A stretch of DNA of 64,000 nt from a bacterium (lineage in GTDB: Bacteria; Patescibacteriota; Minisyncoccia; Sungbacterales; SURF-37). Within the stretch, counting starts at the first letter, position 1, and each line of letters opens with the position of its first letter. Positions 1,704 to 28,250 of this stretch are shown piece after piece. The DNA lies in NCBI GenBank assembly GCA_030648055.1, contig JAUSHI010000007.1, positions 49,621 to 113,620 of the forward strand, written 5' to 3'. The notes below the pieces were generated by a model that had not been told where the DNA came from, ran no database searches, and worked only from the letters and a program-made list of their open reading frames with translations. Made by a program: the position numbers and the translations under genes.

Positions 1704-4499
1704 ATGGCCATATCACGCAAAAAGATACTTGCCAACAATAAGGTGATGCGTAAGTACATTCAAGATGTCTTCCCGGCGGAGGGCGCCCGCGGAGTACAGA
1801 AAGCGCTTATCAAAAAAGGCGTCAACCGCTCCATTCAAACCATCCGTAATACCGCATCGGAAATGGGTATTACCTTGAAAAAGATAAAAGCATCACTGGT
1901 TACGGTTGCAAAACTGAACCTGGAAATTGACCCGGCCCAACTCATTGCAGAGGCCACAGCCATGCCGGAAAAAAAGATTTCAGAAACGCACCTTATTGAA
2001 GCGTCGGTTTTTCCGATGATTGTTGAAGAGACGACGCTTGAAAATCCTTTCGTGGTTGAAATCCCTTCCGGACAGATGCCTATTATCCGCTGTATTAACA
2101 CTCCCATGATAGGTGTTTGCGCAGACACGCATCCTTTCAGGAATCCGCTTTCAAACACTTTGCGCCTCTCCGAAGTATTGCGTGGGCACGCTGACACGGC
2201 CGGATTTCCAGTGGTTGTTGTTACCGGCAACTTTATTCACGTGGACACGCTAAAATATTCCAAGCTCCGGGCGCATCGTTCACTCGTTTCTCAAACCAGG
2301 CCGATTGTACTTTCCGATCTCACAATGGAAGAAGACCGCGAAGTTAACTTTGTAAGCGTTGAAGACCGCATTAAAGACCGCATTGCAATGATGAAGAAAG
2401 CGGCAACCGATGAAGAAGGGCGTCCCCTCTATAACGGCCCTATTTACTACCTTTACGGCAAACGCGAAGAAGAAATCGTCACCTTCTGGGTAGACGAGCA
2501 TGTCCGTAAGGTCACTGCTGAAAAGCAGGACGAGCTTCGCGCGAAACGCACGATACTCAGCAAAGCATTTCGTGTTGCTACCGCGCAGGTAAGCGACTTC
2601 CAAGAATACATTGAGATGTTGCGTCTTGAGGCACAGAATCCGAGTATCACGGAAGAACGGCGCCAAGCCGTCCCTGGTGAAATCAGAGGGCTGGAAAGCT
2701 CACTCGTGTCGGCACAGAATGCTCTTGTTAGCGCCAAAGCTGAACTGAAAAAGGTGCGCGACCAGCTTGAAATCACGCGCGCCACGAACGTTGACGATGC
2801 GGACCTCAAGCGCTGGTTCTTTGAAGGACAACTGCGGCTAAAGCAGATGGTTGAAGAATCAGTACCCAACGCGAAGGTCATCGCTACGGGGGACTGCTTC
2901 ATGAATCTTGGCGGAAAGATTATTCAGATAGTTCAGGACAACTCCGACCTGCCAACCGACAGCTTTCTGGATAAGCAGGCGCAGAAAATCCAGCGACAAC
3001 TCAAAAACGGAGGAAAACAACCTGACCTTATTCTTGTCGGCGGACTAAATCTTGCTCCGACGGATTTTTCGGTCAAATACCCGAAAGCCGAAGGCCTGCC
3101 GAGAGAAATCACCGAAGTTGCGGTAGTTCAGCTCCCGACATGCCTGGATAACGACTTCATCAGAAGAATTACCACAAGAGGAGTGAAGATCGGTTCAGAA
3201 ATCACCCGGCTCGTCAAAGACGAGGACTTCACTTCAGGTGTTGTTGACTACTGCTGGCCGTGCGAATTTCCGCAACTTCGTTTCTGGTCGTCTACGGATC
3301 TCGTCAACGAAGAAATCTTTTCTAAATCCGAAGAGATCGAGAAGATGATTCTCAGCCCGTATCAAGTTTACGGCGAGTATGAAAGCGACATGCAGGAAGG
3401 CGCGCATCATCAGGCCTATTACACCATTCCGGAATTCCCATTCAAGGTGCCGCTTTATGTGATCCATCATAAATTCTTCGTGGATACTGCCGCACCTATC
3501 CATTACTACGCCAACCTCGGCGACATTGTGCAGGGTGAAAACCATGACTACCATCTCGAGGTTCCCGGAGACTTCAAAATCACGCACCAGCTCGAAAAAG
3601 AGATCGACAAGATATTCCGCGATCAAACTCTCACTTGGGAGCAGAAAACGGAACGAATCGCGAAACTCTCAATGACAAACTCGATTCTCGGCGGCACGCC
3701 CCGAGTCGACGATCAGCTTAAGAACTACAAAGAGCGCGCGATCATTCCGGGTGCCAAATATTTCTGCATGGTGCTCACAAACGCCCAAAAGGCCAGACTT
3801 GAGTTTATCGAAAAAGCAAACATCATTTCTCTGCTCGGCGGAAACCACTTCGAAAATACTGGAGGTAAAAATCCTGGTGGAGTAGGAAAACACTTTAATG
3901 AAGCCGAGATCGTGCGAGAATATATCATCAAAGCACTCCGTGTTTGCCGTGAATTTTCAGAAGAAGACCTCGAGCGACTTGTCGTTGCACACAAAATCTC
4001 CGGCGTGTCGGGGGCCCTCGGCGCTTTCGGAATCCTTCCGGAAGGCATGAGTCGCGACGACATTCCGAAGCTTTCTAAAGCAGAACTGAAAAAACTTTTT
4101 CCGTATTGCTTTTCAGCAAAACATAAGCCCTCCGGCAAAGGCACTTCTACCAGAGGCCTGCCGGTAAAATCACTCCGCAAAGCCCGCTCCGAGCGCGGCC
4201 CGACGGATCCTCTTTACGAAGGGCGCTTTGCCCTTGAGGTCGCCGGCCACATTGACCGCGACACTTCTTTCATTTCTCGCGGCTCGCTTTACTCGGTGAG
4301 TCCGGCTCAGGAATTCCGAAGCCCATTTGCGGAAGGCCTTGACTTCGGTCTCGGCGACATCGGGACAAAAGTCATCGGCGTACCCAAAGACCGCAAAGGC
4401 CCTATCGTCATTACGCGCTTTACCTACGAAGTATTCTTCAAGTACCTGAAGAATCCCTGGCCAATCAACGTAAAACAGCTCTTTCCCAACGCTCTTTAA
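1704..4499 (+). CDS. Large hypothetical protein with a basic N-terminus, a long coiled-coil-like middle and metallophosphoesterase-like motifs
   Basis: ATG 1704 has AAGGAG 6 nt upstream (the track ORF starts at GTG 1671). Motifs CADTHP, LGDIVQGENH, GGNHFE and AGHIDRD appear in calcineurin-like order. A heptad-rich stretch spans about 2500-2850. Confidence 0.6.
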   Translation: MAISRKKILANNKVMRKYIQDVFPAEGARGVQKALIKKGVNRSIQTIRNTASEMGITLKKIKASLVTVAKLNLEIDPAQLIAEATAMPEKKISETHLIEASVFPMIVEETTLENPFVVEIPSGQMPIIRCINTPMIGVCADTHPFRNPLSNTLRLSEVLRGHADTAGFPVVVVTGNFIHVDTLKYSKLRAHRSLVSQTRPIVLSDLTMEEDREVNFVSVEDRIKDRIAMMKKAATDEEGRPLYNGPIYYLYGKREEEIVTFWVDEHVRKVTAEKQDELRAKRTILSKAFRVATAQVSDFQEYIEMLRLEAQNPSITEERRQAVPGEIRGLESSLVSAQNALVSAKAELKKVRDQLEITRATNVDDADLKRWFFEGQLRLKQMVEESVPNAKVIATGDCFMNLGGKIIQIVQDNSDLPTDSFLDKQAQKIQRQLKNGGKQPDLILVGGLNLAPTDFSVKYPKAEGLPREITEVAVVQLPTCLDNDFIRRITTRGVKIGSEITRLVKDEDFTSGVVDYCWPCEFPQLRFWSSTDLVNEEIFSKSEEIEKMILSPYQVYGEYESDMQEGAHHQAYYTIPEFPFKVPLYVIHHKFFVDTAAPIHYYANLGDIVQGENHDYHLEVPGDFKITHQLEKEIDKIFRDQTLTWEQKTERIAKLSMTNSILGGTPRVDDQLKNYKERAIIPGAKYFCMVLTNAQKARLEFIEKANIISLLGGNHFENTGGKNPGGVGKHFNEAEIVREYIIKALRVCREFSEEDLERLVVAHKISGVSGALGAFGILPEGMSRDDIPKLSKAELKKLFPYCFSAKHKPSGKGTSTRGLPVKSLRKARSERGPTDPLYEGRFALEVAGHIDRDTSFISRGSLYSVSPAQEFRSPFAEGLDFGLGDIGTKVIGVPKDRKGPIVITRFTYEVFFKYLKNPWPINVKQLFPNAL

Positions 4500-12527: not shown

Positions 12528-12908
12528 ATGACACTAGACCAAAAAACAATTGAAGAATTAAAGCAAAAATTGCTGTCGGAAAAAAAGATACTGGAAGGAA
12601 CCCTTTCCTCTATTGCCTCGCCCGACCCGAAAATGAAAGGGGATTGGGATACTAAATTTCCGAGCATGGGCGATAAATCAAGTTTTTCATCGGGAGCGCT
12701 GGAAGAAAGAGCAGACGAAATTGAAGAATATTCCACCGAGCTTGCCGAAGAATTTAGCATGGAATCGCGCCTTAAAGAAGTAAATTCGGCGATGGAAAGA
12801 ATGGAGAAAGGAACATACGGAACGTGCGCAAGGTGTGGAGAAGAAATACCGCTTGAGCGTCTCCAGGCCAATCCTGCCGCGGCAACGGACATTAAACACG
12901 CCGAATAA
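12528..12908 (+). CDS. DksA/TraR-family zinc-finger-like protein
   Basis: C-terminal GTCARCGEEIPLERLQANPAAAT matches the DksA/TraR pattern. The second CxxC is replaced by DIKH. Confidence 0.6.
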   Translation: MTLDQKTIEELKQKLLSEKKILEGTLSSIASPDPKMKGDWDTKFPSMGDKSSFSSGALEERADEIEEYSTELAEEFSMESRLKEVNSAMERMEKGTYGTCARCGEEIPLERLQANPAAATDIKHAE

Positions 12909-12913
12909 TACTC

Positions 12914-13067
12914 GCAATTCCTTTTTCGCACGACGCTTCGGTTTTGGATATGCGAAGCCGAAAAGCTTCGGGGAGCCCTCCCTTACGCTGCGGCTCGGGT
13001 TTCCCTTCTTGCTTTTCTCACCGCATATTTTCCAAAACCTCCGCTATTGTGCGAGAAAAGGAATTGC
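12914..13067 (+). repeat. Long branched hairpin element C just after the dksA-like stop
   Basis: GCAATTCCTTTTTCGCAC (12914-12931) pairs with GTGCGAGAAAAGGAATTGC (13049-13067). Inner pairing GGTTTTGGATATGCG / CGCATATTTTCCAAAACC. Tip hairpin GAAGC-CGAAAA-GCTTC. Confidence 0.7.
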
Positions 13068-13690
13068 TCGCTTTGGGGAGAGTATTAAAGGAAGCGCTTA
13101 AGCGCCACTTTTTATTTTGTAGCCGCGCCTTCGCAATGAAAAATTTTTGCTACTGCTCCGCTAATATATAATATGAAATAAAAAAGCCCTGATTCATTCG
13201 GGGTTTTGTGTTGCGCGCCCTGCGCATTTTTCCGCTTTAGCACTATAAGAAAACAGTGGTTCAAGAAAACGAACAATAAGCCGCTCACCAATCTCACGAG
13301 TATTATTGTTGTGTGAATATTCGAGAGAACACAAGCATGCGACAAGCACAAACCACTTTTACATGGATTAATTTTCCCAAAACATACCGCAAATAAGCGC
13401 GCCCACATCCGGCGCGAAGCGACCCGTAATCGCAATCGCTCCTCTCACCCGTCTCTTAAAGACACCGGTCTATCTCTCTGAAAAAACCAGACAATCGTCC
13501 GGATATGGCCTGGTTGGTATAAATAGGGCTAATGATACTGTCAATTTTGACAACCGCATTGCGCCTTGCTACGAATGGTTTATCACAATTCATAGAACAT
13601 GAAGCTCATAGCATAAAAAACACTGCGTAAAACATCTAACACAGAACAGGCGCGTGCTCCATGTTTTATGTTATATGTGTTATAACACTT

Positions 13691-15211
13691 ATGGTCAAAC
13701 TCTCCTCCGCGCAACTTACCGGACTCGACGCAACAATCATAACAGTAGAAGTGGACCTATCGCCCGGCCTTCACATTTTTTCAATTGTCGGCCTCGCCGA
13801 TAAAGAAATTCAGGAGTCCCGCGAACGGATAGGCGCGGCGGTAAAAAATATCGGCGGCAGAGCTCCGCACAAAAAAGCCCAGCGTATAATAGTCAACCTC
13901 GCCCCGGCCGACATAAAAAAAGAAGGGCCGGCTTTTGATTTGCCCATTGCTCTTGGTTTTTTGCTTGCCTCGGAACAGACAAGATTCAATCCGGAAGGAA
14001 AACTGTTTTTAGGCGAGCTCGGACTAGACGGTTCGGTAAAACCGATACGCGGGGCGCTCGCTTCAACAATTGAGGCAAAAAAACATTCTTTCAAAACTAT
14101 TTATGTTCCAAAAGGCAACGGAAACGAGGCCGCCCTTGTCGGAGGCATTGAGGTCAAAGAAGTGGGAAGCATACTGGAACTTCTTGATGATCTGGAAAAT
14201 AAAAAAGAAATTGCCGCGCACATCCGTGAAGAAAAAGCAGGAGAAGATATTATTTTTTCTAATTTTTCATTAATCAAGGGACAGGAACACGCCAAACGCG
14301 CTCTGGAAATCGCCGCCGCTGGGGGGCATAATCTTCTAATGCAGGGGCCTCCGGGCACGGGCAAAACCATTCTTGCCCGTTCACTTCCTGAAATCCTTCC
14401 AAAACTCTCATACGAAGAAACAATTGAAGTTACAAAAATTTACAGCGCTACCGGATTTTTAAAAGCAAGCGATGAGGCTGTCATTAAACGGCCCTTCCGT
14501 TCGCCTCACCACACCGCCTCCCCCGTTTCAATCGCCGGAGGAGGAAACCCGATGCGCCCGGGAGAAATAACGCTTGCCCATCGCGGAGTTCTTTTTCTTG
14601 ATGAACTGCCGGAATTCCAATCAAACGTGCTTGAGGCTCTTCGCGAACCTCTAGAAGAGCGCGTCATCACCGTATCGCGCGCGCAAGGAACCGTCGCGTT
14701 TCCGGCACATATAATTTTAGTCGGGGCAATGAACCCGTGCCCGTGCGGACACTTGAATAATCCTCCCCATGAATGCGTCTGCACGCCAGGCCAAATTACA
14801 AAATACCAAAGAAAAATATCAGGCCCGTTGCTCGACCGCATTGACTTATTTATTGAAGTGCCGCCGGTAGAAATCAAAAAAATTGATGAAGAACACCAGG
14901 AAACGAACGAGGCGGAAGCGGCCCGGCAAAGAGTGAAAAAGGCGCGGGGAATCCAGCGCGAACGATTTTTAAACGAAAAACTTCTTACCAACTCCGAAAT
15001 GGGCCTTCGCGAAATTAAAAAATACTGCCCGCTTAATGAAGAAACTAAAAAAATCCTGCGCCAGGCCTACGAACAATACGCCATGTCGGTGCGCTCATAT
15101 TACCGAACCATCAAAACCGCGCGCACCATCGCCGATCTCGCCGAATCTCAAAACATAGAAACACCCCATCTCCTTGAAGCCCTTCAGTATCGAGCCAGAG
15201 TAGAAATTTAA
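13691..15211 (+). CDS. comM: Mg-chelatase-like AAA+ ATPase, YifB/ComM family
   Basis: Start chosen at ATG 13691 (MVKLSSAQLTGLDA). Walker A GPPGTGKT, Walker B VLFLDELPEF, ChlI-like core. Confidence 0.85.
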   Translation: MVKLSSAQLTGLDATIITVEVDLSPGLHIFSIVGLADKEIQESRERIGAAVKNIGGRAPHKKAQRIIVNLAPADIKKEGPAFDLPIALGFLLASEQTRFNPEGKLFLGELGLDGSVKPIRGALASTIEAKKHSFKTIYVPKGNGNEAALVGGIEVKEVGSILELLDDLENKKEIAAHIREEKAGEDIIFSNFSLIKGQEHAKRALEIAAAGGHNLLMQGPPGTGKTILARSLPEILPKLSYEETIEVTKIYSATGFLKASDEAVIKRPFRSPHHTASPVSIAGGGNPMRPGEITLAHRGVLFLDELPEFQSNVLEALREPLEERVITVSRAQGTVAFPAHIILVGAMNPCPCGHLNNPPHECVCTPGQITKYQRKISGPLLDRIDLFIEVPPVEIKKIDEEHQETNEAEAARQRVKKARGIQRERFLNEKLLTNSEMGLREIKKYCPLNEETKKILRQAYEQYAMSVRSYYRTIKTARTIADLAESQNIETPHLLEALQYRARVEI

Positions 15212-15295
15212 CAATTACGGTTCTTCACAAATTCCCGTTAAATATGCTATCGCTTGTTAAAACGGCATTTACTAATATCCTAATCCTAATAACTA

Positions 15296-15388
15296 ATGGC
15301 ATTTAGAGCCTACCTCGCCGAATCCCAAAACATAGAAACGCCTCATCTTTTGGAGGCGCTGCAATATCGGGCAAAGGTTGAGATATAA
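15296..15388 (+). pseudogene. Displaced, diverged duplicate of the comM 3' end
   Basis: Encodes MAFRAYLAESQNIETPHLLEALQYRAKVEI*, versus the true C-terminus ..IADLAESQNIETPHLLEALQYRARVEI*. A 26-nt near-identical core occurs at 15137-15162 and 15314-15339. Confidence 0.7.
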
Positions 15389-15907
15389 AAGAACGAACCC
15401 CGACCGTGCTAGCACGAATCCGGGGTTAAGGTGTGGGGATTGTTTACCCCACTGCATGTTTTTACCTTGTCCCGAGGGACACGGTCAGGTAGCCTCCACA
15501 TGGGTTTTGGTAAACGGTTTCCCGTCTGCCTTATTCGGCTTTGCCGAACCATGCTTCAAACCTGCCTCGTAAGCCATGACCTCACGAGGATTTTGTTTTT
15601 GCGGCACATCATGTTGCGCCGAAGATGTTTTTATTATGTGCGGGTGAAAAAAACGCGCTCCTCTTGCTGAGCCGTAACCGACTATCAGTTTTCCTAATCC
15701 TTCCGCCAATAGATTGCTCTAAGGGCGATCTTTTTCTCCTCTCTACTCCCGATTCTCACCGGGTTGTAGTATGAGGAGCCCGCTCCATGGGAGTGGAGCA
15801 TGGCCGGTTGCAACGATTGCAACCGAGGTTCTTAGTTTTCAAGATAACCGTCTCCCGTGGCGCCCATCTCCGAATGCCCGCACTCATCCGGTAGGTCTCC
15901 AAGGTAC
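15385..15907 (-). ncRNA. Candidate large structured RNA of unknown class
   Basis: Consensus promoter sits immediately upstream on the minus strand. No convincing ORF. Many local hairpins (GGTTGCAA-CG-ATTGCAACC, GCTCCA..TGGAGC, GTGGGG..CCCCAC). 3' terminator-like AACCCCG..CGGGGTT followed by CGTTCTTTT. Confidence 0.4.
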
Positions 15908-15913
15908 ATAGGC

Positions 15914-15941
15914 ATTATAACATATACAAAAATTCTGTCAA
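15914..15941 (-). promoter_or_regulatory. Near-consensus sigma70 promoter with extended -10
   Basis: Minus strand reads TTGACA (15941-15936), a 16-nt spacer ending in TGT, then TATAAT (15919-15914). Confidence 0.65.
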
Positions 15942-16136
15942 GCAAAAATCCAAAAATACCAGTGTTTGCTAGTTTTTTTATTCTCTTTTCTAGACCCTAT
16001 CTTCTAAATTCTAATCTAAAAACGGATTCTTCGCCCTAAACCGCTTAACGGTCGGGCGAAATCCCTAAACAGGGCGCGCCTGTCAACTATAGCCTTAGAA
16101 AAGATTTTTTAGCTCCTCTACCTTAAAATATATAAA

Positions 16137-17291
16137 TTATCTGCTTGCCCAGGAATTATCAGCTCCTGGATTTCTTGCGCCCAGCACACCAAAATGAACA
16201 TGACAGCCGGACGAATTGCCGGTAGAACCAACCGTTCCAATAATAAACCCTTGAGACACATATTGGCTGACGGAAACAAAAACCTGCGATAAGTGCGCGT
16301 AAACCGTCTGTGTGTTTGAATGAGCGATCACGACGTATTTTCCATAACCACCGTTCCTGCCGGACCCTTTCGCAATAATAACCGTACCTTCAACCGCGGC
16401 ATAAATTGGCTCCGCGCACGAAGTTGCTAAATCAACTGCATTATCCTTTCCATGAAGCCCCTGCGTCCTCACCCCGCCCTGAATAGGCCTGATGTAGTAC
16501 CCAAAATATGTTGGAAGTTTGGAATTCTGTGTTGGCGCGCTCGGTTGGGTTGACGGCGTCCACGGCAATTCTCCGTCAGAAATAAAAAGAAGGGTTCCGG
16601 GAACTAACCGCTCATCAATAGAAAGGCTATTTAAACTTAAAATATCTTCAATATTTCCTTTGTATTTTTGGGCTATGGAATTAATCGTATCTCCTTTTTC
16701 TACCTTGACCTCTACGCCATCTATGGAACGAACAACAAGCTTGTCTCCAACCTGAATTTTACGCACATCGGAAATATCATTGGCCCAGAGCAGGGTGTTT
16801 ACCGTAATGCCATGCGCTTTAGCAATAGACGAGGGGGTGTCGCCGAGTTCTACTGTGTGGATAAAAATCTGCCCATCGTTTATGAATGAATCATCCCGCA
16901 TAATGTTATTGGGATTCTGTGGGGCGACAATAGCACTACTCTGCACAACTATTGAGTTTGTGTTTTCGGCACTTTTTAAATTTACATCGGGATTAGGGGT
17001 TGAATCCAAAACAGGCATGGCGACTGTCGCCGCCCGGGTTTCTTTTATAAAAAGAGGAGAACGCTCTTCTGTTATCTGCTTAGAATTGCAAAAGATCCCC
17101 AAAACGTCACAAAAAAATCCGGCATGTGCATGGACCGGAAAAGCAAAAAGTATTAAAAAGCCAAGAAAAACCGAGGTAATTGCGGTTTTAGCCTCTAAAC
17201 CAGTCGCTCTGCGATTGGTCAAGCGATCAGCCGATAAAATCGGCTGATTTAGCTTTAAAAAAGCCGAATGCTTCTTTTGAAGAAGAAGCAT
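16137..17291 (-). CDS. LysM-domain M23 family peptidoglycan endopeptidase
   Basis: Two LysM-like repeats (HTVELGDTPSSIAKAHGITVNTLLWAN and VKVEKGDTINSIAQKYKGNIEDIL). M23 motifs HGKDNAVD and GCHVHFGV. Confidence 0.8.
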   Translation of the reverse strand: MLLLQKKHSAFLKLNQPILSADRLTNRRATGLEAKTAITSVFLGFLILFAFPVHAHAGFFCDVLGIFCNSKQITEERSPLFIKETRAATVAMPVLDSTPNPDVNLKSAENTNSIVVQSSAIVAPQNPNNIMRDDSFINDGQIFIHTVELGDTPSSIAKAHGITVNTLLWANDISDVRKIQVGDKLVVRSIDGVEVKVEKGDTINSIAQKYKGNIEDILSLNSLSIDERLVPGTLLFISDGELPWTPSTQPSAPTQNSKLPTYFGYYIRPIQGGVRTQGLHGKDNAVDLATSCAEPIYAAVEGTVIIAKGSGRNGGYGKYVVIAHSNTQTVYAHLSQVFVSVSQYVSQGFIIGTVGSTGNSSGCHVHFGVLGARNPGADNSWASR

Positions 17292-27177: not shown

Positions 27178-27206
27178 TTGACAGAAAACTAAAATTAGTT
27201 TATAAT
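27178..27206 (+). promoter_or_regulatory. Perfect-consensus sigma70 promoter
   Basis: TTGACA (27178-27183), 17-nt spacer, TATAAT (27201-27206). Confidence 0.7.
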
Positions 27207-27272: not shown

Positions 27273-27647
27273 ATGACCTCAGAAGAGATCGTTGCCCAAG
27301 TGAGGAAAAACAAAGAAGCGGCAAACCCGAAAAAGTGCGCGCCGGAATGCCCGACCGCGGACATGACCGTCTTCTGGACGCTCAGCATCGGCGGAGTGGT
27401 AGGCCTGATTCTCATTGCCGCAATCGCCGCCATGGAGCGCCCGGCGGCCCTCCTCCCGCTCGTCCTCGTCTTCGGAGTCCCTATGTTCATGGGCCTCCGC
27501 AAGATGTACAAGTTTTTAACCACTGGCACTTCGGTGATGGAAGGCTATCTACGGCGTCTTTTCACCGGCTACGGCATCTTCATCGCCATAGCTCTCACCG
27601 GAGGGTCACTGATAATGCTCCCCGCGCTCTTTTCCAAGCTCTTTTAA
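27273..27647 (+). CDS. Small GC-rich membrane protein
   Basis: GGAGGG upstream of the ATG. 124 aa with about 3 hydrophobic helices. G+C is far above the neighbouring sequence, and several frames are open. Confidence 0.5.
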   Translation: MTSEEIVAQVRKNKEAANPKKCAPECPTADMTVFWTLSIGGVVGLILIAAIAAMERPAALLPLVLVFGVPMFMGLRKMYKFLTTGTSVMEGYLRRLFTGYGIFIAIALTGGSLIMLPALFSKLF

Positions 27648-27660
27648 TAACGCCCACCCC

Positions 27661-27688
27661 AAGAGGCGACCAACCGGTCGCCTCTTTT
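27661..27688 (+). terminator. Rho-independent terminator
   Basis: 11-bp stem AAGAGGCGACC/GGTCGCCTCTT followed by TTTT. Confidence 0.75.
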
Positions 27689-27691
27689 GCT

Positions 27692-27700
27692 TTATCCACA
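27692..27700 (+). promoter_or_regulatory. Perfect DnaA box sequence
   Basis: TTATCCACA. Confidence 0.3.
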
Positions 27701-27734
27701 CCACCCCAAAAGTGCATATTTTAGTGTTTTCTTG

Positions 27735-27848
27735 CCCCGTACTAAAAATGGCCTTTCCCACGCGTCTTTGTAGCCGATTGCTGGAATTCTCCATTATGAA
27801 ACGACTTAGCAGAAAGGTAAAATAACTGTGCCATTTTTTAGTACGGGG
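27735..27848. repeat. Long-range inverted repeat (hairpin D)
   Basis: CCCCGTACTAAAAATGGC (27735-27752) pairs with GCCATTTTTTAGTACGGGG (27830-27848). An extended -10-like TGGTATAAT follows at 27851-27859. Confidence 0.65.
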
Positions 27849-27906
27849 TGTGGTATAATACAAATAATGCCCTCAAAAGAAGGTATGTAGAAATAGTTTA
27901 ATTAAA

Positions 27907-28025
27907 CCCCGTTAGAAGTAGGACGCGAGTGCACATTTCATTAGAGATTCTTCATGATTATAAAGTTGCCCATACTTGAGAATTTGTCTCTAACGAGAGT
28001 AAGCGTCCGCGACTTCTAAACGGGG
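27907..28025 (+). repeat. Hairpin element family A, copy A2
   Basis: Left arm CCCCGTTAGAAGTAGGACGCGAGTGC, right arm GTAAGCGTCCGCGACTTCTAAACGGGG. Contains a 21-codon ORF at 27954-28019. Confidence 0.75.
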
Positions 28026-28042
28026 TAAAGAGGTGCGGCCTT

Positions 28043-28103
28043 GGTTTTAAGTGTTTTATCTGTATTTGCAAGACAGCGTCGCGGCAAATACAGCCATAAA
28101 ACC
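28043..28103. repeat. Hairpin E
   Basis: CTGTATTTGC (28060-28069) pairs with GCAAATACAG (28083-28092). Outer pairing GGTTTTA/TAAAACC. Confidence 0.6.
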
Positions 28104-28250
28104 TTAACCCAGCCCTTTATGCAGTAAAAATTACTTCAATGTCAATATGAAAAGCATATCAACATCAAAATTAAAATTAAATTCAGCCGGCTTAAAGGGT
28201 TGGGTGCTGAATTTTATAATTATTCGCTAACACTCATAAATAAAATTCGC

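Follow-up and report, generated by a model that had tools for sequence, protein, structure and literature searches.

A candidate gene for a large structured non-coding RNA between comM and a peptidase gene in Candidatus Sungbacteria

Between two convergent protein genes of an uncultured bacterium lies about half a kilobase of DNA with no credible reading frame, and the question it raises is whether this spacer holds a gene and, if so, of what kind. Genomes of the CPR are about 1 Mb in size and densely packed, and to our knowledge almost nothing is known of their regulatory and structural RNAs; a literature search on structured RNAs in CPR found nothing relevant. The stretch of DNA analysed, 64 kb in length and called the window below, was placed in Candidatus Sungbacteria (Patescibacteria/CPR) via homologs of its ComM protein, the closest of which are 86%, 85%, 78% and 74% identical by BLASTP local alignment. 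The locus of about 520 nt sits between convergent comM/yifB and a LysM-M23 peptidase gene, with genes for PNPase, PcrA/UvrD and KsgA also nearby. Neither associated protein genes nor a prophage context were seen around it, and BLAST comparison of the locus with phage genomes gave no match. The three main features are as follows.

13661-15211, plus strand: comM/yifB (Mg-chelatase-like AAA ATPase), convergent with the RNA locus
15385-15907, minus strand: predicted non-coding transcript of about 523 nt, with its start placed about 7 nt after the -10 hexamer and its end in a U-tract
16137-17291, minus strand: LysM-M23 peptidase gene, upstream of the RNA locus and co-oriented with it

The comM ORF as mechanically called has 516 aa and an identical database protein (P0001) has 506 aa, the difference lying at 13661-13690; therefore the true start of comM is probably 10 codons downstream. 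The locus between the two genes is read here as a genuine stand-alone gene for a non-coding, structured accessory RNA of no known family, with a probability of roughly 0.55. Expression signals, the lack of coding capacity, folding of the sense strand and an excess of conservation between two related loci (L002 and L005) carry this reading.

The expression signals were already recognized in the first-pass annotation, which had proposed a near-consensus promoter on the minus strand (15941-15914) and a compound terminal hairpin followed by a U-rich tract. Both are present in the sequence.

15936-15941, minus strand: -35 hexamer TTGACA, inside the 17-nt block GATTTTTGCTTGACAGA
15914-15922, minus strand: extended -10 element TGT-TATAAT, 16 nt after the -35 hexamer (TATAAT itself at 15919-15914)
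15385-15427, minus strand: intrinsic terminator, a compound hairpin (15427-15396) with a U-rich tail (15395-15385), folding at -16.8 kcal/mol

The promoter scores 12 out of 12 as a sigma-70 site with an extended -10, its 16-nt spacer ending in TGT. Two sites with this score were observed in the 64-kb window, against 0.02 expected under a first-order Markov model. The second (27178-27206, plus strand; TTGACA, 17 nt, TATAAT) precedes an ORF of 124 codons (27273-27647) encoding a predicted membrane protein with the Shine-Dalgarno sequence GGAGGG, which indicates that perfect promoters are used for real in this genome. The terminator is built of AACCCCGG...UCGGGGUU with an inner CGUGC/GCACG stem (15427-15396), followed by CGUUCUUUUAU.

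The coding capacity of the region between 15385 and 15941 is low, as had been noted, with no ORF above 79 aa whichever strand is read. These ORFs of up to 79 aa, together with a GGAG that stands 9 nt ahead of the AUG of a 43-codon ORF (MSAGIRRW...), could raise the suspicion of a gene for a small protein or of a decayed protein gene. Against this, a single chimeric protein query made of all stop-to-stop frames of at least 30 aa from the RNA locus found no homolog at E <= 0.1 among 5.8 billion protein clusters, so that the decayed protein gene which the first-pass annotation had named as a danger did not come to light. Six-frame tblastn of the window RNA against the RNAs at the corresponding loci L002 and L005 of other Sungbacteria gave nothing below E = 0.65, and no reading frame is common to the three. 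The L002 and L005 RNAs moreover differ by a 2-nt indel inside their best-conserved stretch, which confirms that the RNA is not coding. A protein-coding gene or pseudogene was rejected on these grounds and is considered very improbable.

Searches for known RNA families were equally negative. Rfam 15 at gathering thresholds, the check proposed earlier, gave 0 matches in the whole 64-kb window, including RNase P, tmRNA, SRP, 6S, OLE, ROOL, GOLLD, HEARO and raiA as well as the riboswitches and self-cleaving ribozymes, and no tRNA or rRNA was found there either. In E-value mode (E <= 10) the interval 15000-16400 returned only SNORA8 and U12 noise with E >= 1, in the promoter region. A permissive cmscan (E <= 10) at the corresponding loci L002, L004 and L005 gave no Rfam match. 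ARAGORN reported neither a tRNA nor a tmRNA for the window, in agreement with the earlier failure to find a tmRNA by inspection, and a tmRNA was thereby ruled out. The identity of a 6S RNA was also rejected, given transcript lengths of 523, 348 and 347 nt, multi-branched minimum free energy (MFE) structures and the lack of even a weak 6S match at E <= 10. A more general suspicion is that a known RNA (RNase P, tmRNA, SRP, 6S, OLE, ROOL, GOLLD, HEARO or raiA) has diverged here beyond the reach of the models; RNAs of CPR are often atypical, and in a window without any Rfam match such genes must lie elsewhere or be divergent. However, the permissive searches at the window locus and at L002, L004 and L005 brought up none of these families, a gene that is deleted in L004 and absent at this site from most Sungbacteria is unfit for an essential RNA, and the size and many-hairpin architecture are unlike those of 6S or SRP RNA. 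Such a diverged known RNA is regarded as hardly credible.

Folding of the predicted transcript was assessed next. As the first-pass annotation had stated, the locus is richer in G+C (0.48-0.55) than the adjoining spacers (0.38-0.43), and every one of the stems it had listed is present: GGTTGCAA/TTGCAACC at 15826-15805, GCTCCA/TGGAGC at 15799-15782, TTCGGC/GCCGAA at 15547-15533 and GTGGGG/CCCCAC at 15452-15433. The 523-nt transcript has an MFE of -202.9 kcal/mol with 14 predicted hairpins, and its z-score against 100 dinucleotide shuffles is -6.1. For 36 random 523-nt pieces of the window, the mean z was -0.28 with a standard deviation of 1.23 and a minimum of -3.1; under the 20-shuffle protocol of these genomic controls the RNA reaches z = -4.4, beyond all 36. 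The L005 and L002 RNAs have a folding z of -4.2 each. In all three RNAs the sense strand is more stable than the antisense strand, by 13-24 kcal/mol and in the window RNA by 24 kcal/mol, and this difference between strands speaks for selection acting on the RNA and not for a DNA palindrome. The RNA showed neither a repeated loop motif nor any other signature of function, and a sponge of the CsrB/RsmZ type was rejected since the predicted loops share no motif.

Elsewhere in the window, the region 27650-28200, and especially 27866-28125, could be another unannotated structured RNA: it comprises about 550 nt with no contained ORF of at least 40 aa, a -10-like GGTATAAT near 27855, two long hairpins at 27906-28028 and 28050-28100, and an MFE z of -5.3.

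The corresponding site was then compared in other Sungbacteria. By global alignment, ComM of L005 and L076 is 83% identical to that of the window and ComM of L002, L003 and L013 is 73% identical. All five of these loci keep the peptidase-comM arrangement with a non-coding RNA of about 347 nt in between. L013 is the same contig as L002, and the L076 RNA is the L005 RNA (2545-2892, minus strand, in L005) with one substitution, so that there are three distinct RNA sequences overall (window, L002 and L005). L076 was obtained with peptidase homologs as anchors, together with L079 and the RNA-free loci L077, L078 and L080. L079 (contig Hain_H14_02um_R1_38925, from Hainich groundwater) is of the window type, and its contig stops 6 nt short of the expected RNA start. 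In L004, the MAG contig nearest to L005, with a ComM that is 84% identical to that of the window and 94% to that of L005, a clean deletion (seen in L004 2012-2115; junction GATTTT / CGGGCAGGGCTTCC...) has removed the promoter and about 290 nt of the RNA, and only the last ~60 nt with the terminator are retained. Distant Sungbacteria with the same gene pair have a spacer of only 109 nt (L007) or 133 nt (L080) and no RNA, and across the relatives the comM-peptidase spacer varies from 109 to 926 nt. In L001, L006, L045, L077 and L078 the two genes are not adjacent, and neither one is followed by such an RNA. The RNA is missing from all other Sungbacteria loci that were examined, and most Sungbacteria lack it at this site.

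Broader scans brought little more. ComM as a single-protein anchor across genome contigs gave 0 loci, and a promoter-anchored pattern gave 37 matches in genome contigs, only L013 being real. In JGI metagenomes a degenerate comM 3'-end pattern had 0 matches and the RNA 3'-end pattern 7 chance matches in high-GC coding DNA, while scans of IMG/VR with the promoter, the 3' end and words from the body returned chance matches only. At the sensitivity of exact pattern scans, no further copies of the RNA were found in GTDB species representatives, JGI metagenomes or IMG/VR.

Where the RNA is present, its promoter and its 3' end are well kept. The 17-nt block GATTTTTGCTTGACAGA with the -35 hexamer (15950-15934 in the window) is identical in L002, L005 and L076, and at an equal spacing of 16 nt it is followed by TGC-TATAAT in L005 and TGG-TATAAT in L002. 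This shared -35 block and TGnTATAAT are found despite a comM DNA identity of only 72-77% for L002, L005 and L076. The relatives' RNAs also have a common 3' end, CCACACCU...CGGUCGGGGU and a U-tract. Between L002 and L005 the 5' part of the RNA is 77.5% identical and the 3' 150 nt are 93.9% identical, compared with 72.6% for the comM DNA; therefore the RNA is under stronger constraint there than the adjacent protein gene. The 17-mer GATTTTTGCTTGACAGA was also found 12 times in the viral contig IMGVR_UViG_3300020203_000404 (152 kb; L063-L068), where each copy stands at a junction of a repeated gene cassette and is unrelated to the RNA.

In an RNAalifold analysis of L002, L005 and L076, which amount to two distinct alignable sequences, only 5 of 100 predicted pairs carried compensatory changes, and the covariation term, at +1.14, spoke against a common fold. 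A 5-bp stem that reads GGGUG/CACCC in L005 and GUUGG/CCAAU in L002 shows three compensatory pairs by eye. A structure common to the whole family is not demonstrated, because there are only three distinct sequences and the window body has no significant similarity to the other two.

The window RNA shares with those of L002 and L005 its position, strand and promoter, and a leader of about 25 nt (GUA(A)CC...YUGGAG). Also shared are three islands, each 8-10 nt long and in collinear order, which lie in the window as follows.

15614-15623, minus strand: island TTCGGCGCAA, which opens a hairpin after a U-run, as in L005
15429-15436, minus strand: island CCACACCT, common to the RNAs of L002, L004 and L005
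15406-15397, minus strand: island CGGTCGGGGT, the 3' arm of the terminator, identical in L002, L004 and L005

The bodies themselves could not be matched. A comparison of the window body with those of the relatives by nhmmer gave no significant similarity (E = 0.57 for a 589-nt target), a covariance model of the L002/L005 5' domain (R1) had no match at the window locus, and by body similarity the window RNA does not join the L002/L005 RNAs as one family. The second island is the 3' strand of the GUGGGG/CCCCAC helix of the window RNA, and by eye this helix seems to be the counterpart of GUGUGG/CCACAC in the relatives, with a large apical extension replaced by a small loop. Such a correspondence, again judged by eye, suggests modular remodelling of the body rather than a wholly unrelated sequence. 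The shared position, strand, promoter, leader and islands make orthology of the locus likely, while homology of the bodies is unproven. Of the large ncRNA proposed in the first-pass annotation, the candidate itself stands: it is non-coding, strongly structured, bounded by promoter and terminator and without an Rfam, tRNA, tmRNA or protein match, and the same promoter, orientation and 3' end recur at this site in related Sungbacteria. A conserved class is not established, with three sequences, an unalignable window body, the deletion in L004 and absence from most Sungbacteria.

A possible origin of the divergent body can be read from its flanks, which carry remnants of the 3' ends of both neighbouring genes.

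15308-15388, plus strand: relic of a comM 3' end (...LAESQNIETPHLLEALQYRAKVEI and stop codon), abutting the RNA terminator
16021-16075, minus strand: remnant of the 3' end of a peptidase gene (..RFRAKNPF), downstream of the complete peptidase gene and ahead of the RNA promoter

The comM relic is 76.5% identical over 81 nt, about the 27 last codons, to the end of the resident comM (15131-15211); with the ends of comM in L002, L004 and L005 the identity is 80-88%. Its differences from the resident end are mostly synonymous by eye. Being synonymous in appearance and not adenine-specific, they also led to the rejection of the duplication as the template/variable-repeat pair of a DGR. The peptidase relic is 80% identical to its equivalent in L079 (1573-1627, RFRAKKPF before the stop), the canonical C-terminus being HFEVRGAKNPF before the stop. 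The peptidases of the window and L079 themselves carry an unusual C-terminal extension, ending in NPGADNSWASR and NPGVDNSWASQ, respectively, and this arrangement of relic and extension is common to both although the two peptidases are just 58% identical. Flanking of the cassette by relics of both neighbours' 3' ends suggests import by recombination. The simplest reading of the sequence would be that a fragment from another Sungbacterium, consisting of a peptidase end, the RNA and a comM end, was inserted between the complete resident genes. If this holds, the window RNA would be a foreign allele.

Another kind of element was noticed in the same neighbourhood. Directly after a DksA/TraR-like gene, at 12908-13076, the window holds a palindromic element of 169 nt that forms a near-perfect rod and folds equally well on both strands (z of -7.5 for the plus and -6.7 for the minus strand). 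An element with 89% identity to it lies between the RNA terminator and comM in L004, L005 (~2328-2491) and L076, inside an insert of about 270 nt that has inverted ends. No Rfam family matches the element, which is MITE-like or else a further hairpin RNA outside the known classes.

These features of the spacer invite an account in which it is a dumping ground for imported and mobile DNA, where a strong promoter survives and the transcript is junk or selfish, with nothing to prevent its divergence, shrinkage or loss. Gene-end relics flank the cassette, a palindromic MITE-like element has inserted beside the RNA in L004, L005 and L076, the body is unalignable between genomes with 83%-identical ComM, L004 has deleted the gene, and the spacer length ranges so widely among the relatives. 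The perfect promoter has nevertheless been kept in three lineages, the RNA of L002 and L005 is more conserved than comM, reaching 93.9% in its 3' part, and all three versions show an exceptional sense-specific fold, an asymmetry that a palindrome or junk would not give. A functionless unit is thus judged unlikely. The RNA locus as a MITE or repeated mobile element was rejected: no second copy exists in the 64-kb window, the locus has no terminal inverted or internal repeats of note, and its strands fold unequally.

The position of the locus, with a promoter firing toward comM, also raises the question of whether it acts in cis, by interference, antisense control or insulation of the convergent genes, the body serving for termination or stability. 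Such a role fits with L002, where the RNA terminator directly adjoins the stop codon of comM, and with a second, terminator-like hairpin, GCGCCUC-N8-GAGGCGU-UUCUAUNUUUU (U-run UUCUAU), which lies antisense to the comM codons ..PHLLEAL.. in the 3' coding region; it is found in the RNA-bearing clade (L002, L004 and L005) and in the window relic (15360-15337, minus strand), is degenerate in the resident comM of the window and is absent in the RNA-less L001 and L007. The RNA gene may have a backup terminator in this hairpin, or the pattern may only reflect codons typical of the clade. On the other hand, an efficient-looking terminator stands ahead of comM, 177 nt and the relic separate the window RNA from the resident comM, RNA-less relatives retain the convergent pair with a spacer of 109-133 nt, and a sequence-conserved body of 350-520 nt is not needed for interference. 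An action of this kind is considered improbable. A cis-regulatory leader or riboswitch was rejected as well, because the terminator is followed by the convergent comM and no ORF follows on the same strand.

The reading as a stand-alone gene for a structured accessory RNA can be extended to a possible mode of action, for which no specific mechanism deserves better than an unlikely rating. The RNA would be transcribed constitutively and at a high level. It would presumably act in trans as a folded molecule: it might bind protein, as a scaffold or decoy, or it might be a multi-hairpin regulator that base-pairs in the manner of RNAIII. In the latter version C-rich loops would pair with Shine-Dalgarno regions, and candidate loops are CUCCCA in the window RNA and, in L002 and L005, the UCCU that caps their best-conserved hairpin. 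The RNA would not be essential and could be lost. It would probably evolve fast, through gain, loss and exchange of whole hairpin modules, and would be exchanged horizontally, the window allele having been imported with scraps of the donor's comM and peptidase genes.

Taken one step further, the loci might represent an undescribed family of large and ornate accessory RNAs, 350-520 nt in size, that Sungbacteria carry where comM and the peptidase gene meet. Divergent alleles, alike only in promoter, short leader and 3' hairpin, would be swapped between lineages as cassettes through recombination. This proposal is considered rather unlikely. If true, a reduced CPR genome would harbour a hypervariable locus that encodes RNA alone and is exchanged horizontally, perhaps with a part in conflict with phages or hosts. 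An RNA of about 0.5 kb made from one of the two perfect promoters in 64 kb would rank among the most expressed non-ribosomal RNAs, and, if functional, it would add an RNA family specific to CPR episymbionts. Replacement of an allele with relics left at its flanks would be a documented case of an RNA gene exchanged by recombination among lineages that are uncultured. For the present, the locus is a candidate worth a metatranscriptome check and not a discovery.

Comparison with known systems gives likeness of form with several bacterial RNAs. With the RNA polymerase-binding RNAs 6S and Ms1 the candidate has in common a stand-alone RNA that would be abundant, a strong promoter, and a poorly conserved sequence that counts for less than the structure; however, it is made of multi-branched short hairpins, as opposed to the 6S rod of ~180-200 nt with a large central bubble that mimics an open promoter, and its gene could be dispensed with in L004 and is missing from most relatives. 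The CsrB/RsmZ sponges are similar in their length of 350-500 nt, their modular hairpins with fast turnover and the conservation of promoter and terminator. They differ in their repeated loop motif: the 8 GGAG of the window RNA lie outside its predicted loops, and neither GGAG nor any shared loop motif is among the commonest words of L005 or L002. Like RNAIII of S. aureus, the window RNA is about 0.5 kb long and rich in hairpins (14 predicted), with a strong dedicated promoter, an intrinsic terminator and C-rich apical loops. The likeness is one of form only, as there is no homology and no embedded peptide gene, and C-rich loops this short could arise by chance.

A further resemblance in general design concerns the large orphan ncRNAs OLE, ROOL, GOLLD and raiA, which came to light through comparative genomics. 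These RNAs are several hundred nucleotides long, with GC-rich hairpins, A-rich linkers and their own promoter and terminator; they show a patchy, lineage-restricted occurrence in variable or horizontally exchanged DNA, and had no known function when they were discovered. The candidate matches none of them in sequence or in structure, neither protein genes nor a prophage were seen in association with it, and compared with their dozens to hundreds of members with strong covariation it is represented by three sequences, one of them unalignable. In form it nonetheless resembles them in its size, its GC-rich hairpins and A-rich linkers, its own expression signals, its patchy spread and its location in variable DNA.
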